From assembly GCA_031406795.1 (NCBI GenBank), contig JANOHV010000262.1, positions 723 through 64,722 of the forward strand: a DNA stretch of 64,000 nucleotides, read 5' to 3'. Position numbers and translations under genes: made by a program. Under the pieces are notes generated by a model. That model saw only the letters and a list, made by a program, of their open reading frames with translations. It did not search any database and was not told the DNA's origin. This document shows, piece after piece, positions 29,906 through 43,510 of this stretch. How positions within the stretch are numbered: position 1 is the stretch's first letter; every line of letters begins with the position of its first letter. Origin of the DNA: Candidatus Rokuibacteriota bacterium (GTDB lineage: Bacteria; JAUVQV01; DATDCY01).

Positions 29906-30877
29906 ATGCAGGACGGGGAGGTGTTCGACCGCGGCCGGCTGCGGCTGCAGCCGCTCGCAGAGCGGTCCCACGATCTGGCCGCGGCGGATCTGCAGCCGCT
30001 CGGCTGGGAGGGACCGATTCCCGGCGAACTGCGCGCGCTCTCCCGGCGCATCCTGGCCGCCCGGGACGCGGGCCGCCCCGTGATCCTGATGATTGGCGCC
30101 CACGTGCTGCGCGCCGGGGTGCAGCGCCACCTGATCGATCTGCTCGAGCGCGGGCTGATCACCCTGGTCGCGATGAACGGCGCCGGCGTGATCCACGACT
30201 ACGAGCTCGCCCTCGTCGGGGCCACGACCGAGAGCGTGGCGCGCTACATCGCCACCGGGGAATTCGGTCTCTGGGAGGAGACGGGGCGGATCAACGACAT
30301 CGTGAACGCCGCCCACGCCCGGGGGGGCGCCGGCATGGGCGAGGCGGTTGGCGCGGCGATTCTTGCCGGCGAATTCCCCCACGCCGACATCAGCGTCCTG
30401 GCGGCCTGCCGGCGCCTCGGTGTGCCGGCGACGGTCCACGTCGGCATCGGCTACGATATCATCCACGAGCATCCGAACTTCGACGGCGCGGCCGCCGGCG
30501 CGACCTCCTACCGCGATTTCCTGCGGTTTGCCGCCGAAGTCGAGCGCCTCGAGGGCGGCGTGCTGCTGTGCTTCGGCAGCGCCGTGATGGCGCCCGAGGT
30601 GTTTCTCAAGGCGCTGGCGATGGCACGCAACGTCGCCGCAGGGGAGGGCCGGGTGATCAGCCGGTTCGACGTGCTCGTCGCCGACATCCGGGAGCTGCGC
30701 GGCGATCTTGCCGCGGAGCCCGACCGCGCCGACCCCGCCTATTATTTCCGCCCCTGGAAGACGCTGCTGGCGCGCACCGTGGCCGGGGGCGGCGAGAGCC
30801 GCTACCTGCGGGGCAGGCACGAACAGACGATTCCGGCCCTCTGGCGCGCGCTCGCCGCGGCGGCGCAGGACGCCTGA
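29906..30877 (+). CDS. deoxyhypusine-synthase-like family protein (putative)
   Basis: Track ORF 29885-30877; ATG 29906 follows GGGAGGG. VILMIGAHVLRAGVQRHLIDLLERGLITLVAMNGAGVIHDYELAL and GGVLLCFGSAVMAPEVF resemble the DHS/homospermidine-synthase NAD-binding blocks. This assignment comes from pattern memory only. Confidence 0.4.
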   Translation: MQDGEVFDRGRLRLQPLAERSHDLAAADLQPLGWEGPIPGELRALSRRILAARDAGRPVILMIGAHVLRAGVQRHLIDLLERGLITLVAMNGAGVIHDYELALVGATTESVARYIATGEFGLWEETGRINDIVNAAHARGGAGMGEAVGAAILAGEFPHADISVLAACRRLGVPATVHVGIGYDIIHEHPNFDGAAAGATSYRDFLRFAAEVERLEGGVLLCFGSAVMAPEVFLKALAMARNVAAGEGRVISRFDVLVADIRELRGDLAAEPDRADPAYYFRPWKTLLARTVAGGGESRYLRGRHEQTIPALWRALAAAAQDA

Positions 30878-31365
30878 TGCGCGAGGGCAAGGTCGTGACC
30901 GTCGGGGAGCTCGCGGAGCGGGTGGCCGCGCTTCGCGCCGCCGGCAAGCGCGTGGCGCACTGCCACGGCTGCTTCGACCTCGTGCACCCCGGCCACATCA
31001 AGCACCTGCAGGCCGCCCGCCGGCTCGCGGACGCGCTGGTGGTTACCGTGTCCCCCGACCGCTTCGTCGACAAGGGCCCGGGGCGCCCGGCGTTCCCCGA
31101 GCTGCTGCGCGCCGAGTCGGTCGCCGCGCTGGAGTGCGTGGACTACGCCGCCGTGAACCAGTGGCCCACCGCCGAGGAGACGATCCGCCTGCTACGGCCG
31201 GACTACTACGTCAAGGGGCAGGAGTTCGAGCGCACGGAGGATCGGACCGACAAGCTGCGGCGCGAGGTCGATGCGGTGCGCGAAGTGGGGGGAGAGATGC
31301 GCTTCACGCACGAATTCGTTTCATCATCAACGGCGCTGCTCAAGAAGCATTTCGGCGGTGCGTAG
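30877..31365 (+). CDS. cytidylyltransferase-like nucleotidyltransferase (RfaE domain II / HldE C-terminal-like, HxGH motif intact)
   Basis: In-frame part of track ORF 30568-31365. ATG 30877 overlaps the upstream TGA. Motif HCHGCFDLVHPGHIKHL. Confidence 0.8.
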   Translation: MREGKVVTVGELAERVAALRAAGKRVAHCHGCFDLVHPGHIKHLQAARRLADALVVTVSPDRFVDKGPGRPAFPELLRAESVAALECVDYAAVNQWPTAEETIRLLRPDYYVKGQEFERTEDRTDKLRREVDAVREVGGEMRFTHEFVSSSTALLKKHFGGA

Positions 31366-31393
31366 CAGTTCTTCAAGGAAGGCACGGGAGACC

Positions 31394-32914
31394 ATGGGAT
31401 CGATTCTGACGCTCGCGGAGGCCGGGGCGCGCTGCGCGGCGCACCGGGCCGCCGGCAAGACCGTAGTCCAGAGCCACGGGGTCTTCGACCTGGTGCACCC
31501 GGGGATCGTCCGCCACCTCGAGGGGGCCCGGCGCCAGGGAGACGTCCTCGTCGTGACCGTCGCCGGCGACCGCGCGCTCGCCGAGGGGCCGGTGCGGCCG
31601 ATCTTCCCCGAGCAGCTGCGGGCCGAGAACGCGGCCGCTCTCTCTCCGGTGGACATCGTCTGCATCGTGGACGAGGCGGCCCCCCGCGAGAGCTTGCGCG
31701 TGCTCAAGCCCGACGTCTTCGCCCAGGGTCAGCCCGTGACGAGCGCGGAGCGGCGCATGCACCAGCACCTCTTCGGCGGCTCCGGCACGGGGTTCGAGCT
31801 CGGGGCGACCGGGCTCTACGAGACGCTCGAGCTGATCACGAGCTCGCCGACCCTGCTCGGGACGTTCCTCGACATCTACCCCGACGAGACCCGCGGCTTT
31901 CTCCAGGACTTCTCGCGGCGCCATACCTTCGAGCAGGTGCGCGCGGGCATCGACGCGCTCGGCGAGCTGTCGGTCACGCTGGTCGGCGACACGATCATCG
32001 ACGAGTATCACTACTGCCGGGCGCTCGGCAAGTCCGCGAAGTCGAACCTCGTGGTGAACCAGTACCTCTCGCACGAGGTCTTCGCCGGCGGCGCCCTCGC
32101 GATCGCCAACCATCTCGCCGGCATCTGCCGCGAGGTCCGGCTCGTGACGCTTCTCGGCGACACCGACCCGCGGGAGGAGTTCATCCGCGCGCACCTGCGG
32201 CCGAATGTCGCCCCGGTCTTCTTCCGCCGCCCGGACGGCCCGACGATCGTGAAGAAGCGCTACCTGGACCTTTACCTGAACCAGAAGCTCTTCGAAGTGA
32301 ACTACCTGAAGACCCAGCCGGTCGGCGCGGCGGTCGAAGGGGCGCTGCTCGAGCACCTCACGGCGGCGCTGCCGGCCACCGACCTGGTGCTCGTCTCGGA
32401 CTACGGGCACGGCTTCATCACGGCGCCGGTGATGCGCGCGCTCGAGCGCCAGGCGCCGGCGCTCGCCGTGAACACGCAGAACAACGGCGCGAACGTCGGC
32501 TACAACATGATCACGAAGTACCGGAACCCGACGTTCGTCTGCCTCGACGAGTCCGAGCTGCGGTGGGCCGCCCAGGACAAGGAGGGCCCGATCGAGGAGG
32601 TGCTCGAGCGGATGGCCGCGGCCGTGGGCTGCGACTGCCTGATCACGACGCTCGGCAAGAGCGGCTCGATCGGCGTCAGTCGCGGGGGCGCCGTCAACCG
32701 GACCCCGATCTTCTCGTCCAAGGTGGTCGACACGATCGGCGCCGGGGACGCGTACTTCGCCTTCACGGCGCCGCTCGCGCTGCGCGGCGTCCCGCTCGAC
32801 CTGGTCTCGTTCGTCGGCAACGCCGCCGGGGCGATCGCCGTCAAGATCGTCGGCAACCGCCGCCCGGTCGAGAAGGGCGAGCTGCTCGAGTTCGTCGCGA
32901 CGCTGTTGCGCTAG
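31394..32914 (+). CDS. bifunctional-type protein: N-terminal cytidylyltransferase-like domain (degenerate HxGH) fused to C-terminal PfkB/RfaE-domain-I sugar kinase
   Basis: In-frame part of track ORF 31271-32914; ATG 31394. N-terminal QSHGVFDLVHPGIVRHL. Kinase motifs LVGDTIIDEYHYC and VVDTIGAGDAYFA. Confidence 0.8.
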   Translation: MGSILTLAEAGARCAAHRAAGKTVVQSHGVFDLVHPGIVRHLEGARRQGDVLVVTVAGDRALAEGPVRPIFPEQLRAENAAALSPVDIVCIVDEAAPRESLRVLKPDVFAQGQPVTSAERRMHQHLFGGSGTGFELGATGLYETLELITSSPTLLGTFLDIYPDETRGFLQDFSRRHTFEQVRAGIDALGELSVTLVGDTIIDEYHYCRALGKSAKSNLVVNQYLSHEVFAGGALAIANHLAGICREVRLVTLLGDTDPREEFIRAHLRPNVAPVFFRRPDGPTIVKKRYLDLYLNQKLFEVNYLKTQPVGAAVEGALLEHLTAALPATDLVLVSDYGHGFITAPVMRALERQAPALAVNTQNNGANVGYNMITKYRNPTFVCLDESELRWAAQDKEGPIEEVLERMAAAVGCDCLITTLGKSGSIGVSRGGAVNRTPIFSSKVVDTIGAGDAYFAFTAPLALRGVPLDLVSFVGNAAGAIAVKIVGNRRPVEKGELLEFVATLLR

Positions 32915-32923
32915 GGGCAGGCG

Positions 32924-33499
32924 ATGACGACGACCCTCTCCCAGACCCTCGAGGCCCTGGCCGCGCTCGCGCGCAGCGCCGCGTGCACCGACCGCGCCGG
33001 GGCGGCCTGCGACCCCGATGCCGCGTTCGACCGCTGCGTCGACCTGCTCGCCGGCTGCGGCGGCGCCGGCGGCACCGTGCTCTGGATCGGCAACGGCGGC
33101 AGCGCCGCACTGGCGAGCCATTTCGCGGTGGACGTCTTCAACGCCGGGGTGCGCAGCACCGCCTTCAACGACGCGGCGCTGCTGACCTGCATGGGCAACG
33201 ACTGCGGGTACGAGCAGGTGTTCGCCCGGCCGGTCGCGCTGTTCGCCTCCCCCGGCGATGTGCTGATCGCGATCAGCAGCTCCGGGCGCTCGCCGAACAT
33301 CATCGCGGCGGTCGGCGCCGCCCGCGAGCGCGGCTGCGCGGTGATCACCCTCTCCGGCTTCTTGCCGGACAACCCGCTGCGCGGCCTGGGCGACTGGAAC
33401 TTCTACCTGCCGTCCGGGTCCTACGGTCCGGTCGAGATGGCCCACGCGTTCATCTGCCACGCGCTCGTGGACGCGCTGAAGGAGCGGCGCCGTGGCTGA
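32924..33499 (+). CDS. gmhA: D-sedoheptulose 7-phosphate isomerase (SIS domain)
   Basis: ORF track 191 aa. SIS-domain blocks WIGNGGSAALASHFAVD, ISSSGRSPNI and VITLSGF. Confidence 0.8.
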   Translation: MTTTLSQTLEALAALARSAACTDRAGAACDPDAAFDRCVDLLAGCGGAGGTVLWIGNGGSAALASHFAVDVFNAGVRSTAFNDAALLTCMGNDCGYEQVFARPVALFASPGDVLIAISSSGRSPNIIAAVGAARERGCAVITLSGFLPDNPLRGLGDWNFYLPSGSYGPVEMAHAFICHALVDALKERRRG

Positions 33500-34562
33500 C
33501 CGCTTCCGCATCGACGGCCACAAGCTGATGTACCACCTGCCGCGGGTCGCCGCGTGGGTTGAGGGCCGGCCGGTCTACCCGATCGCGATGGAGGTCGGCC
33601 CCTCCGGTTCCTGCAACCACCGCTGCCTCTTCTGCGCGGTCGACTACCTCGAGTACCAGCCGCGCTTCCTCGACGCGGCGGTCCTCGGGCAGCGGCTGAG
33701 CGAACTGGCCGGGCTCGGCCTCAAGAGCGTGATGTTCGCCGGCGAGGGCGAGCCGCTGCTGCACCGGGAGATCGCCGGGATCGTCGCGCACACGCGCGCC
33801 GCGGGCATCGAGGCCGCGCTCGTCTCCAACGCCGTGCTGCTGGGCGAGGAGCTCTGCCGCGCGCTGCTCCCGAACCTCACCTGGCTCAAGGTCAGCTGCA
33901 ACGCCGGCACGCCCGCGACGTACGCCGCGGTGCACCGCACGCGACCGGAGGACTTCGAGCGGGTCATGGCGAACCTCGCCGCCGCGGTCCGGATCCGGCG
34001 CGAGGCGGGGCTCGCCTGCACGATCGGGATCCAGCTGCTGCTGCTGCCCGAGAACGCGCACGAGGTGGCTGCGCTCGCCGCGCGCGCCCGGGAGATCGGG
34101 CTCGACTATCTGGTGATAAAGCCCTACTCGCACTTCGACCGCAGCCGCACCACCCGGTACCGCGACATCCGCTACGAGGAGTACCGCGGTCTGGCCGCCG
34201 CGGTGAGGGCCTGCGCGACGGCGTCGTTCGACGTGGTCTTCCGCGAGGAGACGATGCGCCTGCACGACGAGGGGGAGCGCACCTACGGCCGCTGCCTGGC
34301 GCTGCCGTTCTACTCCTACATCGACGCCGGCGGCACGGTCTGGGGGTGCAAGGAGTACCTCGGCGACGAGCGCTTCGCCTTCGGGAACATCAACGAGCAG
34401 AGTTTCCGCGAAATCTGGGACGGGCCGCGCCGCGCCGCGGTGCTGCGGTTCGTCGCCGAGGAGCTCGACGTGCGCGGCTGTCGCACCAACTGCCGCCTCG
34501 ACAAGATGAACCGCTGGCTCTGGGAGATCTCCCACCCGGCCGAGCACGCGAACTTTATTTAG
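33492..34562 (+). CDS. radical SAM protein
   Basis: ORF track 356 aa. CNHRCLFC (CxxxCxxC) and GEGEPLL motifs. The GTG start overlaps the gmhA 3' end by 8 nt. Confidence 0.8.
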   Translation: MADRFRIDGHKLMYHLPRVAAWVEGRPVYPIAMEVGPSGSCNHRCLFCAVDYLEYQPRFLDAAVLGQRLSELAGLGLKSVMFAGEGEPLLHREIAGIVAHTRAAGIEAALVSNAVLLGEELCRALLPNLTWLKVSCNAGTPATYAAVHRTRPEDFERVMANLAAAVRIRREAGLACTIGIQLLLLPENAHEVAALAARAREIGLDYLVIKPYSHFDRSRTTRYRDIRYEEYRGLAAAVRACATASFDVVFREETMRLHDEGERTYGRCLALPFYSYIDAGGTVWGCKEYLGDERFAFGNINEQSFREIWDGPRRAAVLRFVAEELDVRGCRTNCRLDKMNRWLWEISHPAEHANFI

Positions 34563-34576
34563 GCAGGCGGCTGAAA

Positions 34577-35575: not shown

Positions 35576-35579
35576 CCTG

Positions 35580-36188
35580 ATGCACATCGGGCTGGATTTC
35601 GACAACACGATCGTCATCTACGACCGTCTCTTCCACGGCGCCGCCCTCGAGCGCGGGCTGATTGCCGCCGGCGTGCCGCAGAGCAAGCGCGCGGTGCGCG
35701 ACGCGATCCGGCTGCTCCCCGGGGGCGAGAGCGCCTGGACCGAGTTGCAGGGCGTGGTCTACGGGCGGCGCATGGCGCAGGCCGAGGCCGCCCCGGGGGT
35801 GGAGGCCTTCCTTGCCGCCTGCAGCGCCGCCGGCGTCCGGGTCTCGATCATCAGCCACAAGACCGAGTTCCCGGCGCTCGGCGCGCGGGTGAACCTGCGC
35901 GATGCGGCGCGGGCGTGGCTCGCGGCGCGGGGGCTCCTCGCCCGCCACGGCATCGCCGCCGACGACGTCCTCTTCCTCGACACGCTTGCCGAGAAGCTCG
36001 CCGCGATCGCCGCTCGCGCCTGCACGCACTTCGTCGACGATCTCATCGAGGTCCTCGGGCACCCGGCGTTCCCCCCCCGGGTGGAGCGCATCCTCTACGC
36101 CCCCGTGGGCGGCGAGCTTCCGCCGGGCGTCATCGCGTTCGACACCTGGGAGAGCATCCGGGGCCACCTGCTCGGGGGGAGGCCGTGA
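35580..36188 (+). CDS. HAD superfamily hydrolase (candidate sugar-phosphate phosphatase)
   Basis: ORF track 202 aa. N-terminal LDFDNT (DxDxT) motif. Confidence 0.7.
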   Translation: MHIGLDFDNTIVIYDRLFHGAALERGLIAAGVPQSKRAVRDAIRLLPGGESAWTELQGVVYGRRMAQAEAAPGVEAFLAACSAAGVRVSIISHKTEFPALGARVNLRDAARAWLAARGLLARHGIAADDVLFLDTLAEKLAAIAARACTHFVDDLIEVLGHPAFPPRVERILYAPVGGELPPGVIAFDTWESIRGHLLGGRP

Positions 36189-37204
36189 CGCCGTTGCCCG
36201 GGGGCGTCCGCGAGGCGCTCGAGCGGGCGTACGGCGAGACGGTGAGCGCCGCGCACTCTCGCGCCGCCGGGGCGAACAGCGAGGTCTGGGAGGTCGCGAC
36301 GGCCGCCGGGGCGCGGTATCTCGTCAAACGCTATCCGCCGGCAAGAGCGGGGGAGTCCGATCGCCTCGCCACCGAGTGCGCGGCGCTCGCCTTCATGGCC
36401 CGGCACGGGGTGCTCCCGGTGCCCGCTGTCGTCTGCACGCTCCCGGCGGCGCGGGTCGGGATTTTCAGCTTCGTCGCCGGGACGCCGCTCGAGCCGGGCG
36501 ACGTCGGGGAGAGCGAGGTGGCCGCGGCCGCCGGTTTTCTCGCGCGGCTGCACGGGCTGCGCGGCGCCGCGCGCGCCCGCGAGCTGCCGGTGGCGAAGGA
36601 GGCCTGTTTCTCGATCGCCGCGCACGAGGCGCTCGTGCGCGCGCGGCTGGCGCGGCTGCGCGAGGGGGGGAGCTGCTCCGGCCTGCGGGATTTTCTCGAC
36701 CGGGACCTCGCCCCGCACCTCGAACGCGTCGGTGCCTGGATCGGCGCGACGGCCGACGCGGGCGCGGTCGACCCGCGCGCCGAGCTGCCCGATGCCGCCC
36801 GGACGTTGAGCCCGTCGGATTTCGGTTTTCACAACGCGCTGCGCCTGCCCGACGGGACCCTCGTCTTCATCGACTTCGAGTATTTCGGGTGGGACGACCC
36901 GGCGAAAACCGTGGCCGATTTCCTGCTCCAGCCCGCCGTTCCGTTGCCGGAGCGGCTCCGGGGCCCCGCGTGCGTCCGGCTAAGCGGCATCTACGGGCCG
37001 GAGGCCGATCTCGACTGCCGGCTGCCGCCGGTCTACGCGCTGCTGTCCGTCAAGTGGTGCCTGATCGTCCTGAACCCCTTTTTGCGTGCCGCGCCGGAAG
37101 CCGCCGCCTCGGTGCGCTCCGAGCGTCTGGCCCGGGCGCGCGGCCTGCTCGGTCGCGCCCGGCGCGAGTTCGAGTCCCGGGCGTTCCCATTCGCTGGGAT
37201 TTGA
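36185..37204 (+). CDS. phosphotransferase (APH/choline-kinase-like kinase family)
   Basis: In-frame part of track ORF 35915-37204. GTG 36185 overlaps the upstream TGA. Motifs DFGFHNAL and FIDFEYFGWDD. Confidence 0.7.
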   Translation: MTPLPGGVREALERAYGETVSAAHSRAAGANSEVWEVATAAGARYLVKRYPPARAGESDRLATECAALAFMARHGVLPVPAVVCTLPAARVGIFSFVAGTPLEPGDVGESEVAAAAGFLARLHGLRGAARARELPVAKEACFSIAAHEALVRARLARLREGGSCSGLRDFLDRDLAPHLERVGAWIGATADAGAVDPRAELPDAARTLSPSDFGFHNALRLPDGTLVFIDFEYFGWDDPAKTVADFLLQPAVPLPERLRGPACVRLSGIYGPEADLDCRLPPVYALLSVKWCLIVLNPFLRAAPEAAASVRSERLARARGLLGRARREFESRAFPFAGI

Positions 37205-37210: not shown

Positions 37211-38089
37211 ATGGCGCCCGCAATGATCGGCCCACAGGCGAAACGAGGCGAGAGCCGGGCGGCGTTGGATGCGCGCTCTGCGCACCTGCGCCGCGCGATC
37301 CTCGACGTGGTCCGCAGCGCCCGCCGCGGCCACGTCGGGTCCGCGTTCTCCATCGTCGAGATCCTGCGGGTGCTCTACGACGAGATCCTGCGGGTCGACC
37401 CCGCCCACCCGGACCGCCACGACCGTGACCGCTTCATCCTGAGCAAGGGGCACGGCTGCCTGGCGCTGTACGTCCAGCTGGCCGAGCGGGGCTTCTTCCC
37501 GCGCGAGGCACTCGCGAGCTTCTGCGAGGACGGGTCGCTGCTCGGGGGCCACCCGCAGGCCGGGAAGGTCCCCGGGGTGGAGGCCTCCACCGGGTCGCTC
37601 GGCCACGGCCTGCCGGTCGGGGTCGGCATCGCGCTTCACGGCAAGCTCACCGGCCGCGACTTCCGCACCGTCGTGCTGCTCGGCGACGGGGAGTGCAACG
37701 AGGGCTCCGTCTGGGAGGCGGCCCTCTGCGCCGCCAAACACCGGCTCGAGAATCTCGTCGTCCTGGTGGACTACAACAAGATGCAGTGCTACGCCGCCAC
37801 CGCCGAGGTGCTGGACCTGGAACCCCTCGCCGCCAAGTGGCGCAGCTTCGGTTTCGCCGTGCGCGAGGTCGACGGGCACGCGCTGCCCGCGCTGCGCCGC
37901 GCGCTGCGCGCGCTGCCCTTCGCGGCGGGGCGTCCGTCGGCGCTGATCTGCCACACCGTCAAGGGGCGGGGGATCGCGCGGTGCGAGGGCAACCCGCACT
38001 GGCACCACAAGAGCCGGATCTCGGACGCCGAGCTCGGCGAGCTCGAGGGCGAGCTCGAGGCCGGGCGCGACGGGAGGTGCGCGTCGTGA
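37211..38089 (+). CDS. transketolase, N-terminal (TPP-binding) subunit
   Basis: ORF track 292 aa. HVGSAFSIVEIL, LSKGHG and GSLGHGLPVGVGIA motifs. Confidence 0.9.
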   Translation: MAPAMIGPQAKRGESRAALDARSAHLRRAILDVVRSARRGHVGSAFSIVEILRVLYDEILRVDPAHPDRHDRDRFILSKGHGCLALYVQLAERGFFPREALASFCEDGSLLGGHPQAGKVPGVEASTGSLGHGLPVGVGIALHGKLTGRDFRTVVLLGDGECNEGSVWEAALCAAKHRLENLVVLVDYNKMQCYAATAEVLDLEPLAAKWRSFGFAVREVDGHALPALRRALRALPFAAGRPSALICHTVKGRGIARCEGNPHWHHKSRISDAELGELEGELEAGRDGRCAS

Positions 38090-39021
38090 GAAAGGCCTGT
38101 CTCGAGAGCATCCACGAGCTCGCGCGCCGCGACCAGCGCGTGCTCTTCTTCGGCTCGGACATCGGCGCCGGCACGCTCGAGGGCTTCCGCACGGAGTTCC
38201 CGGCGCGCTTTTTCATGGAGGGGGTTTCGGAGGCGAACATCGTCGGGGTCATGTCCGGCCTCGCGATGAACGGCTGGATCCCCTACCTGAACACGCTCGC
38301 GGTCTTTTTGACCCGGCGCTGCTACGAGCAGACGCTCCTCGACGCGGCGATGCACCGGCTGCCCGTGCGCCTCTGCGGCAGCGGCGGCGGCGTGGTCTAT
38401 GCGCCGCTCGGGCCGACCCACCTGGCATTCGAGGACCTGGCGCTGATGCGCGCGATCCCCGGCATGACGATCCTTGCCCCCTGCGACGCCGGGGAGATGC
38501 GCCGGCTGATGGCGCAGACCCTCGACTGGGAAGGGCCCGTCTACGTCCGCCTCGCCAAGGGCGGCGACGCAGTCGTCAGCGACGCGGCGCTGCCCTGCCG
38601 CATCGGGCGCGGCGTGCTGATGCGCGGCGGCGCCGACGCGCTGCTGGTGACCACCGGCATCACCGCGCAGATCGCGCTGGCGGCGCACGCGCAGCTGGCG
38701 CGGGACGGGATTGCCGCGGGAGTGCTGCACCTGCACACCGTCGCGCCGCTCGACACGGCGCTGCTGCTCGAGAGCGCCGCCGGCGTGCGCGCCGTGGTCA
38801 GCGTCGAGGAGCACAACCTCACCGGGGGGCTCGGCAGCGCGGTGGCCGAGGTCCTCGCCGAGGCGAACTTGCCGCGTGCGCCGCGGTTCCGGCGGATCGC
38901 GCTCGCCGACGGCTTCCACCCGGAGTACGGCTCCCAGGCGAGCCTGCTGCGCCGCGGCGGCGTCACGGCCGAGGCGGTCGCGGGCGCCGTGCTGACGCTT
39001 CTCGAAACGAAGGAGGGCTGA
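38086..39021 (+). CDS. transketolase, C-terminal subunit
   Basis: In-frame part of track ORF 37693-39021. GTG 38086 overlaps the upstream TGA. Pyrimidine-binding and C-terminal domain pattern (FFMEGVSEANIVGVMSGLAMNGWIPY). Confidence 0.9.
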   Translation: MRKACLESIHELARRDQRVLFFGSDIGAGTLEGFRTEFPARFFMEGVSEANIVGVMSGLAMNGWIPYLNTLAVFLTRRCYEQTLLDAAMHRLPVRLCGSGGGVVYAPLGPTHLAFEDLALMRAIPGMTILAPCDAGEMRRLMAQTLDWEGPVYVRLAKGGDAVVSDAALPCRIGRGVLMRGGADALLVTTGITAQIALAAHAQLARDGIAAGVLHLHTVAPLDTALLLESAAGVRAVVSVEEHNLTGGLGSAVAEVLAEANLPRAPRFRRIALADGFHPEYGSQASLLRRGGVTAEAVAGAVLTLLETKEG

Positions 39022-39683
39022 TGGCCTACGTGGATTTTCTGTCGGCGATTCACACGAGCACGAAGCGCGATTACCTGGCGCGCGTCAACGAGTACCCGAA
39101 GGCGGAGGCGATGAAGATCGCCCGGCGCTACGACCAGGAGTACTGGGACGGCGACCGCAAGTTCGGCTACGGCGGCTACCGCTACGACGGCCGCTGGCGC
39201 AAGGTCGCCCGCGCGATGGCCGACCACTACGGGCTCAAGGCCGGCGACCGCATCCTCGACGTCGGTTGCGGCAAGGCCTTTCTGCTGCACGACCTCACGC
39301 TCGAGGTGCCGGGCGTCGAGGTCGTCGGCATCGACATCTCGGCGTACGGTATCGCCCACGCCAAGGAGGAGGTCCGTCCGCACCTGCAGGTCGCCGACGC
39401 GAAGCAGCTGCCCTTTCCCGACAAGAGCTTCGACTTCGTCTACTCGATCAACACGCTGCACAATCTCTACGCCTTCGACATGGTGGCGGCCGTCAAGGAG
39501 ATCGAACGCGTGAGCCGCCGGCACAAGTACATCGTGGTCGAGTCCTTTCGCAACGAGGAGGAGCAGGTGAACCTGATGTACTGGGTGCTCACCGGGCGCT
39601 GCTTCCTGGCGCCGGTGGAGTGGGACTGGTTCTACGGCCTCGCCGGCTACACCGGCGACCACTCCTTCATCTACTTTGAATAA
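39021..39683 (+). CDS. class I SAM-dependent methyltransferase
   Basis: ORF track 220 aa. ILDVGCGKAFL motif. ATG overlaps the upstream TGA and is preceded by AAGGAGGG. Confidence 0.85.
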   Translation: MAYVDFLSAIHTSTKRDYLARVNEYPKAEAMKIARRYDQEYWDGDRKFGYGGYRYDGRWRKVARAMADHYGLKAGDRILDVGCGKAFLLHDLTLEVPGVEVVGIDISAYGIAHAKEEVRPHLQVADAKQLPFPDKSFDFVYSINTLHNLYAFDMVAAVKEIERVSRRHKYIVVESFRNEEEQVNLMYWVLTGRCFLAPVEWDWFYGLAGYTGDHSFIYFE

Positions 39684-39827
39684 GCCGATGCCGCTTCATC
39701 GGCCTGCAACTGCGTTGCACTCCTCGTGCCGTCCTGCGACGTACGCTCGTACGTCTCGGCCATCACTCGTCGTGCGCCTTGTTTCGGCTCAATGCTGCGA
39801 CATCGGCGGGCAGATTCAGGTGCTGCG

Positions 39828-40856
39828 ATGAAGGCGGCGATCCTCGTCGAGTCCGGGAGGCCGCTCGTGGTGGCACAGTTAGAGCTGCCGGAGCGCCTCG
39901 AGTACGGCCAGGTGCTCGTGCGGGTGCACGCGAGCGGGATCTGCGGCTCCCAGATCGGCGAGATCGACGCCGTGAAGGGGCCGGACAAGTTCCTGCCGCA
40001 CCTGCTCGGGCACGAGGGGGGCGGCGTCGTCGAGGAGATCGGCCCGGGAGTGCGCTTCGTCAAGCCGGGCGACCGCGTCGTGCTGCACTGGCGCAAGGGC
40101 CGGGGCATCGAGTCGCCGACGCCGCGCTACCGCTGGGGCGACCGTACGGTCAACGCCGGCTGGGTCACGACCTTCAACGAGCGCGCCGTCGTCTCCGAAA
40201 ACCGCGTGACGCCGATCCCCGACGACATCGACTTCGGCGTGGCGGCCCTGCTCGGCTGCGCGGTCACGACCGGCCTCGGGGTGGTCGTCAACGACGCGAA
40301 GCTGCGGATCGGCGAGTCGATCGCCGTCTACGGCGCCGGCGGGGTCGGCCTCTCGGTCGTGCAGGGGGCGGCGCTCGTTTCGGCCTGGCCGATCATCGCG
40401 ATCGACCGCGACGAGGCGAAGCTGGCGATGGCGAAGGCCTTCGGGGCGACCCACGTGATCAACACCGCGACGGGCGGCACCGCGGAGCAGGTGCGCGGGA
40501 TCGCCGGGGCGGCCGGCGTGGACGTCGCGGTGGACACCACCGGGGCGGTCGCGCTGATCGAGGAGGCCTGGGGGGTGACGTCGGCGCGGGGGCGGACCGT
40601 GCTGGTCGGGGTGCCGCGGGCAGGCGAGCGCGTGCGGATCAACACCCTGCCGCTGCACTTCGAGAAGCGGATCGTCGGCTCGCACGGCGGCCAGGCCGAG
40701 CCGGCCGAGGACATCCCGCGGTACGTGAATCTCGTGCGCCAGGGGCGACTGCGCCTCGCCGGGATGATCACCCACACGTTCGCGCTGGATCAGATCAACG
40801 ACGCGGTAGCGCTGATGCGCGCCGGCGGGGGCGGCCGGTGCCTGATCAAGCTGTGA
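39828..40856 (+). CDS. zinc-dependent alcohol dehydrogenase (MDR family)
   Basis: Track ORF 39726-40856; ATG 39828 (MKAAILVE). GHEGGGVVEEIGPGV and GAGGVGLSVVQGAAL motifs. Confidence 0.85.
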   Translation: MKAAILVESGRPLVVAQLELPERLEYGQVLVRVHASGICGSQIGEIDAVKGPDKFLPHLLGHEGGGVVEEIGPGVRFVKPGDRVVLHWRKGRGIESPTPRYRWGDRTVNAGWVTTFNERAVVSENRVTPIPDDIDFGVAALLGCAVTTGLGVVVNDAKLRIGESIAVYGAGGVGLSVVQGAALVSAWPIIAIDRDEAKLAMAKAFGATHVINTATGGTAEQVRGIAGAAGVDVAVDTTGAVALIEEAWGVTSARGRTVLVGVPRAGERVRINTLPLHFEKRIVGSHGGQAEPAEDIPRYVNLVRQGRLRLAGMITHTFALDQINDAVALMRAGGGGRCLIKL

Positions 40857-41641
40857 GCGCGGGCGCGGCGCCGGCGACTCCGGCCCCGGCGCCCCGGTCC
40901 CCGGGCCTGGGCGTCGACAGCATCCCCTACGGCTGCGACATCAGCTTCTTCGTCCCCGCCCTCAACGAGCAGGACCTCATCGTCCCGACCCTCGAGACGC
41001 TGCTCGGCGCGCTCTCGCGCTTTCGCCACTCCTACGAGATCATCGTCGTGGACGACGGCTCGACCGATGCCACCGCGGCCCGGGTCGGGCAGTTCATCGC
41101 CGCGCATCCCGGCGAGCCGGTCCGCCTGATCCGCAACCCGGCCAACCGCGGGCTGGGGCGCAACTACGTCGACGCCGCGTTCGTCGCCACCGGCCGGTAC
41201 TACAAGCTCGTCTGCGGCGACAACCCGGAGCCGCAGCACACGATCGAGGCCCTTCTCGCGCACCTGGGCGAGGCGGACATCATCACCCCGTACCTGCGCG
41301 CCGACCCGCGGGACTGGCAGCGCCGGCACCTCTCGGTGCTCTTCACGAAGCTCGTCAACCTGGTCGGCGGCTACCGGCTGCGCTACTACAACGGGACGGC
41401 GATCCACCTGCGCTACAACGTGATGCGCTGGCACTCGGACACCTACGGCTTCGCGTTCAACGCGGAGATTCTCACGCGGCTGCTCAACGAGGGGGCGAGC
41501 ATCATCGAGGTGCCGATCGACGTCGTCGAGGCGCCCGGCAGGACATCGCGCGCCTTCAGCTTCCACAACATCCTCTCCGTCCCGCACAGCCTCCTGCAGA
41601 TCTTCCTCCGTCGCCTCCGCCGCGCACTGTTTCACGTGTAA
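40853..41641 (+). CDS. GT2 family glycosyltransferase (DPM1/GtrB/CsbB-like)
   Basis: In-frame part of track ORF 39779-41641. GTG 40853 overlaps the upstream TGA. DISFFVPALNEQD, IIVVDDGSTD and NRGLGRNYVDA motifs. Confidence 0.8.
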   Translation: MSAGAAPATPAPAPRSPGLGVDSIPYGCDISFFVPALNEQDLIVPTLETLLGALSRFRHSYEIIVVDDGSTDATAARVGQFIAAHPGEPVRLIRNPANRGLGRNYVDAAFVATGRYYKLVCGDNPEPQHTIEALLAHLGEADIITPYLRADPRDWQRRHLSVLFTKLVNLVGGYRLRYYNGTAIHLRYNVMRWHSDTYGFAFNAEILTRLLNEGASIIEVPIDVVEAPGRTSRAFSFHNILSVPHSLLQIFLRRLRRALFHV

Positions 41642-41734
41642 CCTGACCGCGTAACCTGGACGGCGCGCTTGCGCCGGGTCTGCCGGCGCTGCTCGGCGCA
41701 GCGCGTCTCCCCTGTGCTATTCTTTCGACAGACC

Positions 41735-43510
41735 ATGAATTATCGTGCCCTCGTCGTCGTGCTGGGGTTGATCGCCCTGGCGGCATTGGTGTATGCGCCC
41801 GCGGTGCACCACGGCTTCATCTCTCTCGACGACGAGGTCTACGTCACCGGCAATCCGCCGGTGCAGGCCGGCCTCACGGCAGCGGGTGTCCGATGGGCCT
41901 TCTCGTCGTTCCGGGCCGGCTTCTGGATTCCCATGACGTGGCTTTCCCTGATGGCCGACGCCACGATCTACGGCGGGTGGCCGGGGGGGTATCACCTGAC
42001 CAACCTGCTCCTGCACGCGGCCGGGGCTGCTTTGTTGTTCCTGGCACTTCGCTCGCTGACCGGCTCCACCTGGCGAAGCGCGGCGGCGGCGGCCCTCTTC
42101 GCGGTCCACCCCATCCACGTGGAGTCGGTGGCCTGGGTCACCGAGCGAAAGGACGTGCTGGCGGGAGTGTTCTTTATGGCGACCCTGTTGGCCGCGGACC
42201 GCTACGCGCGACGGCCGGGCCGGGCGCGCTACCTGGTGCTGGCTGGGCTTTTCCTCCTCGGCCTGATGTCCAAGCCGATGCTGGTGACCCTGCCGTTCGT
42301 GCTGCTGCTGCTGGACTGGTGGCCGCTCGGGAGGTTCGTCCCGGGCGCCGCTGTGCGCCTCCTGGCTGAAAAGCTGCCGCTCCTGCTCCTGTCGATCGGC
42401 GCGTCCGTGATGACCCTCGTCGCCCACCGACACGTGCAGGGTCTGGTCTCGGTGGAGAGCATTCCCATAGCCGCGCGGGTGACCAACGCCCTGGTTTCGC
42501 CAGTCCGTTACCTGCAAAAGCTGGTACTGCCCTGGGATCTCGCGCTTTACTATCCGCACCCCAAGGAGGCGCTGCCGCTCCTGACGGTGGCGGGAGCGGC
42601 GGCCCTGCTCGGGCTCTTCACCTGCCTCGCTCTTGCCGGCAGGAGGAATCGGCCGTTCCAGGCGGTCGGGTGGCTCTGGTTTCTCGTCATGCTCCTCCCG
42701 GTCATCGGACTCGTGCAGGCGGGGGGTCAGGCGCTGGCCTATCGCTTCGTCTACCTGCCGCTGATCGGTGTCTACCTTGCGCTCACCTGGAGCGTCGCCT
42801 CCTGGCCGCCGGCCGGCAATGTGCTGAAGCGGCTTCTCCCCGTGGCGGCCTTCGGGGTGATCGCGGCCCTCGCCGTGGGCGCCAGGGCGCAACTGCGCTA
42901 CTGGGAGGACAGCGTCGAGCTCAGTCTCCACACCATCGCCCTGACGGGCGACAACAGTTTCATCCGTCACAATCTCGGCCTCGAACTCGTCCGCCGGGGC
43001 CGCTACGCCGAGGCCGTCACCCACCTCGCCGAGGAAGTCCGCATGGTGCCGCGATCACCGGAGGCGCGCACGGCGCTTGCCATGTCCCTGCTGCGCGCCG
43101 GGAGAATCGAGGAGGCCAGCCGGCAGCTCGAGATCTCGCTTCAGCTCGATTCGAAGAATCCTGAGACCTTGTTTCTCGGGGGCGTCCTGCTGACCAGACA
43201 GGGCCGGTTCGCCGATTCGATTCCGTGGTTCTCCCGCACGCTCGCCCACCGTCCCGACCATGCCGACGCGCGCTACAATCTCGCTCGGGCGCTCAAACTC
43301 GCCGGGAGAACGCCGGAGGCGGTCGAGGCCTATCGGAACGCGGTCCGGCTTCGACCCTCGGACAGCGATGCCCGGCTCGAACTGGGAGCTCTTCTGGCCG
43401 GTCTGGGCCGGTTCGACGAAGCGGCCGAACACTATCGCGCCGTGCTTCGGAAGAAGCCTGACAGCGAAGCGGCCCGGACCGGGCTGCGGGAGATCGGCTT
43501 TGGACGCTGA
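41735..43510 (+). CDS. TPR-containing GT-C membrane glycosyltransferase, DUF1736/PMT-like
   Basis: Track ORF 41669-43510; ATG 41735 (MNYRALVVVLGL). Motifs FWIPMTWLSLM, HPIHVESVAWVTERKDVL, LLLLDWWPLGRF, AYRFVYLPLIG, and 5-6 C-terminal TPRs. Confidence 0.8.
   Translation: MNYRALVVVLGLIALAALVYAPAVHHGFISLDDEVYVTGNPPVQAGLTAAGVRWAFSSFRAGFWIPMTWLSLMADATIYGGWPGGYHLTNLLLHAAGAALLFLALRSLTGSTWRSAAAAALFAVHPIHVESVAWVTERKDVLAGVFFMATLLAADRYARRPGRARYLVLAGLFLLGLMSKPMLVTLPFVLLLLDWWPLGRFVPGAAVRLLAEKLPLLLLSIGASVMTLVAHRHVQGLVSVESIPIAARVTNALVSPVRYLQKLVLPWDLALYYPHPKEALPLLTVAGAAALLGLFTCLALAGRRNRPFQAVGWLWFLVMLLPVIGLVQAGGQALAYRFVYLPLIGVYLALTWSVASWPPAGNVLKRLLPVAAFGVIAALAVGARAQLRYWEDSVELSLHTIALTGDNSFIRHNLGLELVRRGRYAEAVTHLAEEVRMVPRSPEARTALAMSLLRAGRIEEASRQLEISLQLDSKNPETLFLGGVLLTRQGRFADSIPWFSRTLAHRPDHADARYNLARALKLAGRTPEAVEAYRNAVRLRPSDSDARLELGALLAGLGRFDEAAEHYRAVLRKKPDSEAARTGLREIGFGR

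Follow-up and report, generated by a model that had tools for sequence, protein, structure and literature searches.

Fourteen consecutive genes (g1 to g14) occupy the plus strand between positions 29906 and 43510 of the window, the whole 64,000-nt stretch of DNA analyzed here, as determined by a GC3 frame plot and ORF analysis and with the same limits as in the preliminary description. These genes and their neighbors are as follows.

29906..30877, +: g1, GSU2086-family protein, 323 aa; deoxyhypusine-synthase / LOR-SDH-like Rossmann fold
30877..31365, +: g2, stand-alone HldC-like nucleotidyltransferase, 162 aa; Pfam CTP_transf_like 59 bits
31394..32914, +: g3, nucleotidyltransferase-like N-domain and HldA-like PfkB kinase C-domain, 506 aa; Pfam PfkB 64.9 bits, CTP_transf_like 31.3 bits
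32924..33499, +: g4, GmhA-like SIS-domain ketose/aldose phosphate isomerase, 191 aa; Pfam SIS_2 62 bits
33492..34562, +: g5, radical SAM enzyme, 356 aa; Pfam Radical_SAM 64 bits, SPASM 36 bits
34577..35575, +: g6, extended SDR, RmlB-like, 332 aa; Pfam GDP_Man_Dehyd and Epimerase, about 157-159 bits
35580..36188, +: g7, HAD-superfamily phosphatase, 202 aa; DxDxT motif LDFDNT
36185..37204, +: g8, APH / choline-kinase-type small-molecule kinase, 339 aa; Pfam APH 60.6 bits
37211..38089, +: g9, split transketolase-like ThDP enzyme, N-terminal (PP-domain) subunit, 292 aa; Pfam Transketolase_N 147.7 bits
38086..39021, +: g10, split transketolase-like ThDP enzyme, Pyr and C-terminal subunit, 311 aa; Pfam Transket_pyr and Transketolase_C
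39021..39683, +: g11, class I SAM-dependent methyltransferase, 220 aa; Pfam Methyltransf_11 70 bits
39828..40856, +: g12, Zn-dependent medium-chain dehydrogenase/reductase, 342 aa; Pfam ADH_zinc_N 86 bits, ADH_N 60 bits
40853..41641, +: g13, GT2 glycosyltransferase, 262 aa; Pfam Glycos_transf_2 63.6 bits
41669..43510, +: g14, TMTC-like membrane protein with C-terminal TPR repeats; Pfam TPR, TM prediction
43531..45024, -: B12-binding radical SAM enzyme, convergent, 497 aa; Pfam B12-binding and Radical_SAM
45101..45640, -: small membrane protein, 179 aa; TM prediction
45645..46217, -: small membrane protein of 190 aa, paired with the 179-aa protein
46340..48241, -: polytopic membrane protein, 633 aa; TM prediction, weak PMT_2
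49354..51858, +: YfhO-family membrane protein, 834 aa; Pfam YfhO 62 bits
51752-53011: FkbM methyltransferase

An operon-like block that recurs in other genomes

Six of the junctions between g1 and g14 are overlaps of 1-8 nt and five are gaps of 4-28 nt, leaving two wider spacers of 144 nt (g11/g12) and 93 nt (g13/g14), the latter if g14 starts at ATG 41735, which is its probable start. The block shows no excess of terminator- or promoter-like sites (nine terminator-like sites vs. 5.5 +/- 2.6 in shuffles); internal promoters could lie inside the two wider spacers. The Pfam families of g2 to g6 and g8 to g14 score above their gathering thresholds. The preliminary description of 14 packed plus-strand genes with named domains is thus borne out by the frame plot, the ORFs and Pfam, with g7 and g14 supported by other means, and the B12-radical SAM and FkbM methylases that it placed nearby are both present. 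At the level of sequence, the block is confirmed as a real operon-like unit.

The same gene order was found in two related MAGs, one of them labeled Ca. Methylomirabilia. Because the order recurs in locus L005 (68-94% amino-acid identity) and in L087 (g1 85% identical), and parts of it recur across phyla, the arrangement is more than a chance grouping. Many anaerobic bacteria and some archaea carry versions of the cassette, and in these related loci three modules are separable: activation (module A), skeleton tailoring (module B) and transfer by a GT2 and a GT-C enzyme (module C). A minimal locus from Kiritimatiellae (L089) holds only SIS, NT-PfkB, GSU2086, HAD, GT2 and PMT_2 GT-C genes, i.e., modules A and C, and no transketolase. 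An Acidobacteria locus (L088) combines module A with SDR, transketolase, ADH and methyltransferase genes and has no radical SAM gene, while a Desulfobacterota locus (L086) carries radical SAM, E1 alpha/beta, GT2 and B12-radical SAM genes together with a GT9 heptosyltransferase-family gene, and lacks module A.

Activation genes related to heptose pathways

Heptose enzymes were the top match of the GmhA-, HldA- and HldC-like proteins in every search. The top PDB match of g4 is E. coli GmhA (2i22, E=2.6e-24), and g4 keeps the equivalents of H61 and H180 and an SSSGRS phosphate loop, with E65 replaced by Asp and Q172 by Glu. The best PDB match of g3, which starts at ATG 31394 (giving 506 aa, as in relatives; the alternative is GTG 31358), is heptose 7-phosphate kinase 4e84 (E=2.1e-18), and g3 has a GAGD motif. 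The full length of g2 can be aligned to Burkholderia HldC (5x9q, E=2.4e-13), and the alignment extends through the C-terminal S(S/T)TALLKK. All three proteins nevertheless score far under the equivalog cut-offs of NCBIfam (g4, 86 bits vs. 209 for TIGR00441 gmhA; g3, 102 vs. 345 for rfaE_dom_I; g2, 98.3 vs. 181.5 for TIGR02199 rfaE_dom_II), which makes them diverged paralogues and not orthologues. The GmhA- and RfaE-like assignments of the preliminary description, which it had made dependent on HMM thresholds, therefore pass those of the Pfam domains and fail the NCBIfam/TIGRFAM equivalog cut-offs. Since every heptose-pathway assignment lies under these cut-offs, a different ketose phosphate could serve as substrate; sedoheptulose-7-P is the most likely one.

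Two cytidylyltransferase-like domains had been proposed; both are present and only one looks active. The HxGH motif of g2 is intact (HPGH), and g2 is probably the active sugar-1-P nucleotidyltransferase, whereas the N-domain of g3 reads HPGI and is, judged by its motif, a degenerate copy. The fused domain is likewise degenerate (HxG[IVL]) in 18 of 20 loci with a separate g2, and keeps HxGH in 25 of the 26 that lack a separate g2.

The HAD phosphatase claim for g7 also stands, although not by HMM, which gave no hit; the assignment comes from the DxDxT motif, the NCBI name of one homologue ('HAD family hydrolase') and an AlphaFold model (pLDDT 96) whose best 47 Foldseek matches all belong to the HAD superfamily. 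Invariant residues are D6, D8, T10, S92, K139, D153 and D154. Heptose-1,7-bisphosphate phosphatase ranks 19th among the Foldseek matches, and the GmhB-type step is a candidate role for g7. g1, which had gone unnamed, can now be assigned to the GSU2086 family, whose namesake sits between hldE and gmhA in Geobacter, and one homologue (P0183) is a fusion with a CTP_transf domain; we place g1 in the sugar-activation module, with a probably NAD-binding fold and possibly an NAD-dependent catalytic role.

A tailoring module anchored by a radical SAM enzyme

g5, around which the conserved tailoring module is anchored, combines a CX3CX2C motif with a SPASM/twitch-type domain at its C-terminus. Its invariant cysteines are 41, 45, 48, 268, 286, 330 and 334, the last four of which suggest one auxiliary cluster. 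The nearest solved relatives, DesII, BlsE and viperin, act on nucleotide-linked sugars or nucleotides. Across phyla, orthologues share about 55% identity, and the family comprises 448 clusters at E<=1e-30.

A split transketolase had been proposed as a supplier of sedoheptulose-7-P. The enzyme itself is present: g9 scores 245 bits against NF004559 with a visible GDG...N ThDP motif, and g10 finds its top PDB match in the C-chain of the split transketolase from Carboxydothermus (6yaj, E=4.7e-53). In g10, however, THAG...GEDGASHQ is replaced by GSGG...APLGPTHL, so that two conserved acceptor-site residues, E. coli H461 and D469, are missing and read Gly and Leu; this altered pocket is kept in in-cluster homologues. 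A ThDP enzyme was found in 73 of 83 loci, and in 52 of 71 related loci its alpha gene comes directly after the g5 orthologue (29 of pyruvate-dehydrogenase-E1 type and 23 of transketolase type). A transketolase acting before activation would also fit, as 24 of 27 loci with the transketolase type carry module A, but an E1-type enzyme takes its place beside the radical SAM gene in related loci and the minimal locus manages without it. Because the acceptor residues are missing and the ThDP gene, often of E1 type, adjoins the radical SAM gene, g9/g10 is more likely a tailoring enzyme, and a simple sedoheptulose-7-P supply is unlikely. The order of radical SAM followed by ThDP gene is not obligatory, since L088 has the transketolase without the radical SAM gene.

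The proposal of an extended-SDR dehydratase/epimerase holds for the extended SDR and probably not for the dehydratase. g6 scores 179 bits against TIGR01181 (cut-off 365), and in alignment with 8shh the STDEVYG stretch reads SSPEVYG in g6, i.e., the 4,6-dehydratase Asp is lost (SPE for TDE) while YxxxK is retained, making g6 a probable NDP-sugar oxidoreductase or epimerase. With this aspartate missing, the radical SAM enzyme is the more likely source of any deoxygenation.

Among the remaining tailoring genes, g8 shows D-x4-N and IDFE motifs and is accompanied by g7 in 6 of 6 loci. g11 is 46-54% identical to, and syntenic with, genes 3' of the transketolase genes in about 10 loci of other phyla, Methanoperedens among them. 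g12 starts at ATG 39828 (the ORF is open from 39726), its relatives likewise having 342 aa. The convergent B12-radical SAM protein reached no NCBIfam equivalog and is probably a C-methyltransferase; it often accompanies the cassette, with a homologue within 10 kb in 47 of 85 loci.

Transfer genes and a proposed pathway

In 47 of 85 loci the cassette comes with a GT2. The top PDB match of g13 is weak (ArnC 9hwj, E=1.7e-6), followed by DPMS and GtrB, and a hydropathy scan found no TM helix; g13 is a candidate polyprenyl-phosphate sugar synthase, a role against which the weak match and the missing membrane anchor count. For g14, about 8 TM helices are predicted, the first loop carrying a DD motif. 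The protein shares 39% identity with 23431-25380(-), and its membrane domain resembles 2214-3689(-), a TMTC_DUF1736-bearing paralogue in the window (hhalign probability 97.6%, E=3e-12). Of the TPR-GT-C transferase proposed for g14, the TPR part is supported by Pfam and the GT-C part transitively, via this paralogue, and we consider it a putative GT-C transferase. g14 belongs to a multi-copy family with at least five paralogues in the window. As L005, a close relative, has no gene at the corresponding position, g14 may be a lineage-specific addition.

Further membrane proteins lie downstream. The 179-aa protein has no Pfam or NCBIfam hits and the 190-aa protein no significant match in either; in eight loci of other phyla they are always paired beside the cassette, at 44-54% and 29-41% identity, respectively. 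The 633-aa protein matches positions 2-154 of 160 of the PMT_2 profile below the cut-off (E=0.0075; 16.9 bits vs. 26.1) and may be a GT-C (PMT_2-like) transferase. The YfhO protein is a further GT-C candidate; in a Scalindua locus (L001) the cassette ends in a 1333-aa YfhO directly 3' of its B12-radical SAM gene. For both the 633-aa and the YfhO protein, membership of the system is uncertain here.

From the family and fold assignments, motif states, synteny and co-occurrence statistics observed above, we infer a pathway, including its substrate, nucleotide, step order, the chemistry of g5 and g9/g10, lipid carrier and acceptor, in which the three modules cooperate, a reading to which we give a probability of roughly 60%. 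In module A, g4 would turn a ketose phosphate, most likely sedoheptulose-7-P, into an aldose, the HldA-like PfkB domain of g3 would phosphorylate C1, g7 would remove the distal phosphate and g2 would make the NDP-sugar. In module B, g5 and g9/g10 would form a functional pair, g5 generating a carbonyl or deoxy-aldehyde center and the ThDP enzyme adding a two-carbon unit, giving a chain-extended or branched sugar; g6 and g12 would adjust keto and hydroxyl groups, g11 would contribute an O-methyl and the convergent B12-radical SAM enzyme a C-methyl group, and g8 would add or recycle phosphate. In module C, g13 would load the sugar onto polyprenyl phosphate, and a GT-C enzyme (g14, possibly the nearby PMT_2-like or YfhO proteins) would move it to a protein or glycan acceptor outside the cytoplasmic membrane.

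The preliminary reading of a tailored, nucleotide-activated heptose-type sugar made by an operon-like block ending in GT2 and GT-C genes is thereby retained, with sedoheptulose-7-P supply and SDR deoxygenation corrected. Its statement that a pathway of such composition is undescribed agrees with the searchable literature, in which we found no description of such a cassette. Judging from sequence, the block most likely builds a remodeled, nucleotide-activated sugar of seven-carbon type that is handed to membrane transferases for the cell surface.

Gene layout of the block

Because the G+C content of the window is about 70%, genes were called from third-position GC (GC3) together with ORF structure. 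This calling placed uninterrupted coding for 14 genes on the + strand between 29906 and 43510, and both the limits and the gene number given in the preliminary description are thus correct.

Genes of the block, as called from GC3 and ORF structure
29906-30877, + strand: g1, GSU2086-family protein
30877-31365, + strand: g2, stand-alone nucleotidyltransferase (NT)
31394-32914, + strand: g3, NT-like domain followed by PfkB kinase
32924-33499, + strand: g4, SIS-domain protein
33492-34562, + strand: g5, radical SAM protein
34577-35575, + strand: g6, SDR
35580-36188, + strand: g7, HAD protein
36185-37204, + strand: g8, APH
37211-38089, + strand: g9, Transketolase_N
38086-39021, + strand: g10, Transket_pyr and Transketolase_C
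39021-39683, + strand: g11, methyltransferase
39828-40856, + strand: g12, Zn-ADH
40853-41641, + strand: g13, GT2
41669/41735-43510, + strand: g14, TPR protein

Neighboring genes overlap at six junctions and lie 4-28 nt apart at five; the only larger spacers, which precede g12 (144 nt) and g14 (93 nt), could contain promoters. Promoter- and terminator-like sites were no more frequent in the block than in shuffled sequence; this absence of excess terminators and the gene spacing are compatible with co-transcription as a single operon. The g11-g12 spacer (39684-39827) is non-coding and may be an internal promoter or an insertion remnant; at the same junction close relatives have 4-8 nt. A search of 39684-39827 for an RNA element returned two short hairpins lacking a T-tract, with a fold that was not significant (z = -1.2). 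No RNA gene in the window was matched by Rfam, and a 69-nt tRNA-Ser(GCT) called by ARAGORN at 37120-37188 (+) was discarded as a false positive, as it lies inside the g8 coding sequence and has no Rfam tRNA match. A horizontally acquired island was likewise dropped as an explanation, given a uniform GC content of 0.68-0.74.

The same gene order occurs in two close relatives: the metagenomic locus L005, with 68-94% amino-acid identity, and L087 from a Ca. Methylomirabilia MAG, whose g1 homologue is 85% identical; on this synteny the window probably derives from the same lineage. Upstream of g1, a divergent GT2 gene (28852-29805, -) probably contains a frameshift, whether because it is a pseudogene or because the assembly is wrong there: the long ORF turns into Arg-rich nonsense in its C-terminal half, the GC3 signal shifts frame at 29031-29432, and the counterparts in L005 and L087 are 256-257 aa long. 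Farther upstream (25491-28811, +), a 214-aa protein, hydrophobic in an N-terminal segment, a U32-family protein, an unnamed protein and an ArsP-type permease are syntenic with the operon in both relatives; the U32 family includes O2-independent hydroxylases.

Candidate activation enzymes

The preliminary description had read the block as an operon for a tailored nucleotide-activated heptose, and of the domains that it named for activation these were recovered above Pfam thresholds: CTP_transf_like in g2 and the N-terminal part of g3, PfkB in the C-terminal part of g3, and SIS in g4. The GmhA/RfaE-like assignments thus stood at the domain level and failed at the equivalog level, where NCBIfam/TIGRFAM cut-offs were missed. 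Specifically, g4 scored 86.3 bits against GmhA (TIGR00441; equivalog cut-off 209.45) and fell far under the cut-offs of PRK13936, PRK00414 and PRK13938, g3 scored 102 bits against HldE/HldA (TIGR02198; equivalog cut-off 345), and g2 scored 98.3 bits against TIGR02199 (equivalog cut-off 181.5). Because all three lie so far below equivalog level, g2, g3 and g4 form a separate paralogous set of heptose-type activation enzymes.

Structural and motif comparisons nevertheless lead back to heptose enzymes, in that precisely GmhA, HldA and HldC enzymes come out as the top matches of g4, g3 and g2, in the databases and in the PDB alike. The closest PDB match of g4 is E. coli GmhA (2i22, E=2.6e-24), and the alignment retains the equivalents of H61 and H180 and an ISSSGRS loop, with E65 replaced by Asp and Q172 by Glu; we take these four positions to be the Zn/catalytic residues of E. 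coli GmhA and the Ser/Thr loop to be phosphate-binding. The g3 kinase (Pfam PfkB, 64.9 bits) carries the GAGD catalytic motif as DTIGAGD and finds its closest PDB match in the Burkholderia heptose-7-phosphate kinase HldA (4e84, E=2.1e-18). In g3 the NT-like domain (residues 41-128) precedes the PfkB domain (206-505), the reverse of the kinase-N/adenylyltransferase-C order of bifunctional HldE. The g2 protein can be aligned over its full length with Burkholderia HldC, its HEFVSSST and ALLKK segments falling on FEHDRSTT-ALLKK; of the C-terminal motif (F/L)xxGxSTT of HldC and HldE domain II (PMC11461863), only the S(S/T)T core is kept.

Two cytidylyltransferase-like domains had been claimed, and both are present, but the HxGH nucleotide-binding motif is intact only in g2 (HPGH), the g3 N-domain having lost it (HPGI). 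The two are 44% identical. The related loci counted here and below include the best 80 of more than 462 loci. Among the loci listed, the fused NT domain is degenerate in 18 of the 20 that have a separate g2 and intact in 25 of the 26 that do not, a clear pattern of duplication and degeneration.

The HAD phosphatase named in the preliminary description was confirmed as g7, which has the DxDxT nucleophile motif as LDFDNT and homologues named HAD hydrolase; its AlphaFold model (pLDDT 96) agrees, as the 47 best Foldseek matches all belong to the HAD superfamily. Searches of g7 against Pfam and NCBIfam gave no match, and the PDB sequence search likewise returned nothing usable. It is not specifically GmhB-like, in that GmhB (4pnh) appears only at Foldseek rank 19 (E=4e-4), behind generic HAD phosphatases.

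The g1 protein exceeds the cut-off of the GSU2086 family (NF052581; 361.6 bits against 250) and covers profile positions 2-300 of 301. In Geobacter sulfurreducens the namesake of this family is flanked by heptose-activation genes, hldE-GSU2086-gmhA (GSU2085-2087), and disrupting any of the three by transposon insertion impaired growth on electrodes in a similar way (PMC5585712). Radical SAM, ThDP, methyltransferase and GT-C genes, by contrast, are not mentioned there (PMC5585712). GSU2086 is a member of the activation module. In one 495-aa protein (P0183) a GSU2086-family domain is fused to CTP_transf_like, which would tie g1 to g2 in Rosetta-stone fashion; this fusion could be a gene-calling artefact because g1 and g2 overlap by 1 nt here. 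An SDR found in Omnitrophota was dropped as an HldD equivalent, having only a generic GalE-like score.

The same set of enzymes serves canonical GmhA/HldE-type activation, namely an SIS-type isomerase, an anomeric kinase of the PfkB family, a HAD phosphatase and an NT of cytidylyltransferase fold. The present genes differ from it not only in their sub-equivalog scores and NT-kinase order but also in pairing a fused NT without HxGH with a separate NT copy, in having a GSU2086-family DHS-fold protein and no HldD, and in the attachment of radical SAM, ThDP and B12-radical SAM enzymes.

The radical SAM and ThDP gene pair

Both Pfam assignments for g5, Radical_SAM (64.4 bits) and SPASM (36 bits), are above cut-off. 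Its cluster motif CX3CX2C reads CNHRCLFC and is accompanied by four more invariant Cys; its closest solved relatives are DesII, BlsE and viperin, which act on nucleotide-linked sugars or nucleotides. No curated family was reached, the top NCBIfam score being 71 bits against 380. Full-length orthologues (48-58% identical) occur in at least 80 species-representative genomes, with hosts that include Nitrospirota, anammox and other Planctomycetota, Thermodesulfobacteriota, Omnitrophota, Elusimicrobiota, Fibrobacter and Methanoperedens, and the family comprises 448 cluster representatives at E<=1e-30 in a 50%-identity protein library.

The split transketolase (TK) named in the preliminary description is borne out by Transketolase_N in g9 and Transket_pyr plus Transketolase_C in g10, all above Pfam thresholds. 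The ThDP-binding GDG...N motif (GDGECNEG) and the PP, Pyr and C domain architecture are present, NCBIfam transketolase NF004559 is matched by g9 and g10 with 245 and 202 bits, and the closest PDB match of g10 is a split transketolase (6yaj, E=4.7e-53). In the alignment, THAG...GEDGASHQ of 6yaj corresponds to GSGG...APLGPTHL of g10, so that the equivalents of E. coli H461 and D469, which we take to bind phosphate and the acceptor C2-OH, respectively, are Gly and Leu. The canonical THxx...GEDG signature was kept in none of the in-cluster TK-like homologues, with similar replacement throughout.

Among the loci listed, a ThDP enzyme is present in 73 of 83, and its alpha subunit directly follows the g5 orthologue in 52 of the 71 with enough downstream sequence, being of the pyruvate-dehydrogenase-E1 type (E1) in 29 and of the TK type in 23. 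The recurrent cassette reads [GSU2086 or SDR] - [NT] - [NT-PfkB] - [SIS] - radical SAM - ThDP alpha/beta, continuing with [methyltransferase or GT2] - second radical SAM - B12-radical SAM - two small membrane proteins, and a GT-C gene often follows, such as that for a 1333-aa YfhO in Scalindua. In most related loci (e.g., L001/L002, L010, L020 and L059) another radical SAM/SPASM paralogue, with about 28% identity to g5, lies a few genes downstream; it is absent from the window and its close relatives.

Modules could be separated by anchoring contexts on g1 instead of g5. A minimal Kiritimatiellae locus (L089) contains only GT2, HAD, SIS, PMT_2 GT-C, NT-PfkB and GSU2086, that is, activation and transfer. 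An Acidobacteria locus (L088) has NT-PfkB, SIS, GSU2086, SDR, TK alpha/beta, ADH, a 201-aa protein and a methyltransferase and lacks radical SAM, while in Desulfobacterota (L086) radical SAM, E1 alpha/beta, GT2, B12-radical SAM, a GT9 of the heptosyltransferase family and another radical SAM occur without activation genes. The common thread is heptose.

Because the E1 type cannot supply sedoheptulose-7-phosphate, because the acceptor pockets of the in-cluster TKs are altered and because the minimal locus has no TK, our reading is that the ThDP enzyme has a tailoring role, in which it would donate two carbons and work as the functional partner of the radical SAM enzyme. If the acceptor were an aldehyde lacking a 2-hydroxyl, for example the product of a radical diol dehydration, a hydrophobic residue in place of Asp469 would be fitting. 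A more far-reaching reading, to which we give a probability of roughly 0.3, is that the radical SAM enzyme and a TK- or E1-like ThDP enzyme form a fixed pair that rebuilds the skeleton of an activated heptose, with radical dehydration or oxidation giving a carbonyl to which two carbons are added, and that cobalamin-dependent C-methylation then yields a new higher-carbon or branched sugar. GT-C enzymes would place this sugar on envelope proteins or glycans in many anaerobes (Methylomirabilota, Nitrospirota, anammox Planctomycetota, Desulfobacterota, Omnitrophota, Elusimicrobiota and Methanoperedens-type archaea), and GSU2086 would be a new NAD-dependent heptose-activation enzyme. Precedents for sugar tailoring by such enzymes include DesII, AprD4, BlsE, GenK-type B12 methylases and two-carbon branching by YerE, in which ThDP catalysis attaches C2 units to a sugar; unlike YerE, an acetolactate-synthase-type flavoenzyme, the ThDP enzyme here is of the split transketolase or E1 type. 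To our knowledge, a fixed pairing of radical SAM and ThDP genes has not been described for any pathway. A pathway to phosphonates centered on a split ThDP decarboxylase was dropped, as there is no PEP mutase.

The preliminary description had instead assumed that the split TK only boosts the supply of sedoheptulose-7-phosphate, tailoring being limited to deoxygenation and methylation with the seven-carbon skeleton unchanged. The affinity of g10 to the genuine split transketolase 6yaj and the NF004559 scores of g9 and g10 speak for such a role, as does the isomerase/kinase module found in 24 of the 27 TK-type loci among those listed, and hosts that hold little sedoheptulose-7-phosphate, as archaea may, would favor it too. 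We nonetheless consider it unlikely, because the Gly/Leu replacements recur in that no in-cluster TK-like protein keeps the canonical signature, because the slot after radical SAM is taken by an E1 type in the 29 listed loci, and because L089 would activate its sugar without any TK.

In a second alternative the ThDP enzyme would begin the pathway, using a sugar phosphate to make an unusual higher or deoxy ketose phosphate (octulose, nonulose) from an acceptor possibly prepared by the radical SAM enzyme; g4, g3, g7 and g2 would then follow, and the activated sugar would not be a heptose. The precedent is the lincomycin cluster, in which the transaldolase LmbR, the GmhA-like isomerase LmbN, the phosphatase LmbK and the nucleotidyltransferase LmbO lead to GDP-octose (PMC12945683). 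That cluster, with its LmbP kinase, resembles the present one in placing a pentose-phosphate-type C-C bond-forming enzyme amid heptose-activation logic; it differs in using a transaldolase (C3 transfer) rather than a ThDP transketolase (C2 transfer), in lacking a radical SAM partner, and in that its product goes to an antibiotic and not to GT2/GT-C. The octulose phosphate made by LmbR enters the isomerase/kinase/phosphatase/nucleotidyltransferase sequence, and the kinase belongs to a different family from g3. A longer substrate would agree with the divergence of isomerase, kinase and NT from the heptose equivalogs, with the two substitutions in g4 and with the co-occurrence of TK and activation module; g10 apparently keeps the equivalent of R358 and has Lys for R520, which may leave phosphate binding partly intact. 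This alternative leaves unexplained the E1-type loci that have radical SAM, GT2, B12-radical SAM and GT9 but no activation module. Furthermore, the GSU2086 family sits beside canonical hldE and gmhA in Geobacter and occurs in the TK-free L089, which argues that the module handles a normal heptose, and on balance we find it improbable that the ThDP step comes first.

The tailoring model proposed here is itself weakened by the sub-equivalog scores of all heptose assignments and by L088, where a transketolase occurs without a radical SAM gene. TK action before activation, as supply or as formation of a longer ketose phosphate, would also fit the 24 of 27 TK-type loci, among those listed, that have the activation module.

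Proposed further tailoring and transfer, and significance

Additional tailoring candidates were recovered as named: extended SDR (g6), APH (g8), methyltransferase (g11) and Zn-ADH (g12) are all above Pfam thresholds, and the nearby methylases are confirmed as a B12-radical SAM enzyme (43531-45024, -), which resembles class B methylases, and an FkbM methyltransferase (51752-53011). The call of g6 as a dehydratase/epimerase held for its extended SDR fold and not for the dehydratase triad: this RmlB-like protein keeps YxxxK as YAASK but has SPE for TDE, and with 179 bits it is below the TIGR01181 cut-off of 365, so that oxidoreductase or epimerase activity is more likely for g6 than 4,6-dehydration. 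No curated family was reached by the B12-radical SAM enzyme, g7, g8 or two small membrane proteins of 179 and 190 aa (45101-46217, -). This pair, without family assignment, could be flippase-like; it lies beside the cassette in L006, L021, L022, L024, L049, L065, L067 and L078, from Nitrospirota, Omnitrophota, Planctomycetota and Deltaproteobacteria, with identities of 44-54% and 29-41%. Weak, sub-threshold matches were the only trace of ladderane, hopanoid, arsenosugar and mycofactocin pathways, which were dropped.

As claimed, the operon ends in a GT2 (g13) and a TPR protein (g14), both above Pfam thresholds. The best PDB matches of g13 are ArnC (1.7e-6), DPMS and GtrB, all weak, and no TM helix is predicted. 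Gene g14 encodes C-terminal TPR matches and about eight TM helices; no direct DUF1736 match and no usable PDB match of the membrane domain were found, and hhalign relates it to a window protein carrying Pfam TMTC_DUF1736 with 97.6% probability (E=3e-12). The naming of g14 as a TPR-GT-C protein therefore agrees with a TMTC-like polytopic domain, recognized through this paralogue, plus TPR, with a putative transferase role. At least five TMTC-like paralogues lie within the 64 kb, at 1-1146(-), 2214-3689(-), 6507-8483(+), 23431-25380(-) and 41669-43510(+), being 37-55% identical to g14 and to each other except for the more distant 2214-3689 copy, which carries TMTC_DUF1736; the putative GT-C transferases are thus strikingly expanded here. 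The candidate GT-C enzymes are g14 and possibly the product of 46340-48241, with a weak PMT_2 match, or of the YfhO gene at 49354-51858. Elsewhere in the window, two similar gene sets (15883-21208 and 56087-60416) encode CarboxypepD_reg-domain and NosD/beta-helix proteins, the former set also HEAT-repeat and Fer4_5 membrane proteins; the products may be secreted or envelope proteins and are conceivable glycosylation targets.

With moderate confidence, we propose that a heptose-type sugar would be activated by g4, the g3 kinase, g7 and g2, with g1, that it would be remodelled by g5, g9/g10, g6, g12, g11, g8 and the B12-radical SAM enzyme, and that the product would be handed via g13 to GT-C enzymes in the pattern of ArnC/ArnT, GtrB/GtrV and CsbB/YfhO. 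The assignments, motifs and co-occurrence figures are observations; the substrate, nucleotide, step order, radical and ThDP chemistry, lipid carrier and acceptor are what we infer. With three-component glycosylation (ArnC/ArnT, GtrA/GtrB/GtrV, CsbB/YfhO, DPM1 with PMT/TMTC) the block shares a GT2 nearest to ArnC/DPMS/GtrB and a GT-C beside sugar-activation genes, but g13 lacks the usual C-terminal TM helices, no recognizable GtrA or ArnE/F flippase is found here, and the donor would be a modified heptose-type sugar rather than glucose, mannose, GlcNAc or Ara4N.

The product might alternatively be a soluble metabolite, a cofactor-like molecule or a lipid head group, with the GT2 acting on a small-molecule acceptor next to unrelated GT-C neighbors. 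The absence of a TM segment from g13 and its weak similarity to glucosyl-3-phosphoglycerate synthase and to mycofactocin and arsenosugar glycosyltransferases would suit such a product, and the combination of three radical SAM-type enzymes with a ThDP enzyme and B12 is reminiscent of pathways to cofactors or natural products. The place of g14 is also less than firm, as it has at least four paralogues in the window and its counterpart is missing at this position in L005, which weakens our model as well. A product that stays off the surface nevertheless seems to us very improbable, since GT-C proteins stand beside the cassette in unrelated phyla (YfhO in Scalindua, PMT_2 in L089 and a TPR membrane protein in L086), a GT9 gene occurs in 14 of the 32 E1-type loci among those listed, and the best solved relatives of g13 are polyprenyl-phosphate transferases.

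GDP-heptose tailoring in the Campylobacter jejuni capsule and the Yersinia O-antigen involves C4 dehydrogenase, epimerases, reductases, the DmhA/WcbK 4,6-dehydratase and O-methylation, after activation by a GHMP kinase (HddA) and the GDP-forming HddC. As there, SDR-type oxidoreductases and methyltransferases would act on an NDP-heptose before glycosyl transfer here; unlike DmhA/WcbK, the g6 SDR lacks the dehydratase Asp, and radical SAM, ThDP or cobalamin enzymes are not known to us from those pathways.

Systems that make nucleotide sugars for extracytoplasmic transfer are a known kind, and we know of none in which a radical SAM and ThDP pair occurs together with cobalamin methylation, a DHS-fold protein and a pseudo-nucleotidyltransferase. 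The claim that a pathway of this composition is undescribed was upheld: the open literature yielded no description of the cassette or of GSU2086-family function, and papers on the anammox S-layer glycan do not mention radical SAM genes. What is known of NDP-heptose metabolism comes mainly from LPS cores, capsules and a small number of antibiotics, and if the model holds, a large unexplored branch of this metabolism would be at hand, with the radical SAM and ThDP pair, a protein of deoxyhypusine-synthase fold linked to heptose activation, a pseudo-nucleotidyltransferase domain and a transketolase with a remodelled acceptor pocket as targets for enzymology. Because NDP-heptoses are innate-immune agonists (PMC11461863), modified NDP-heptoses may be of interest to innate immunity too. 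Importantly, the model predicts a new surface sugar in environmentally important, mostly uncultured groups, for example anammox bacteria, nitrite- and nitrate-dependent methane oxidisers and sulfate reducers.
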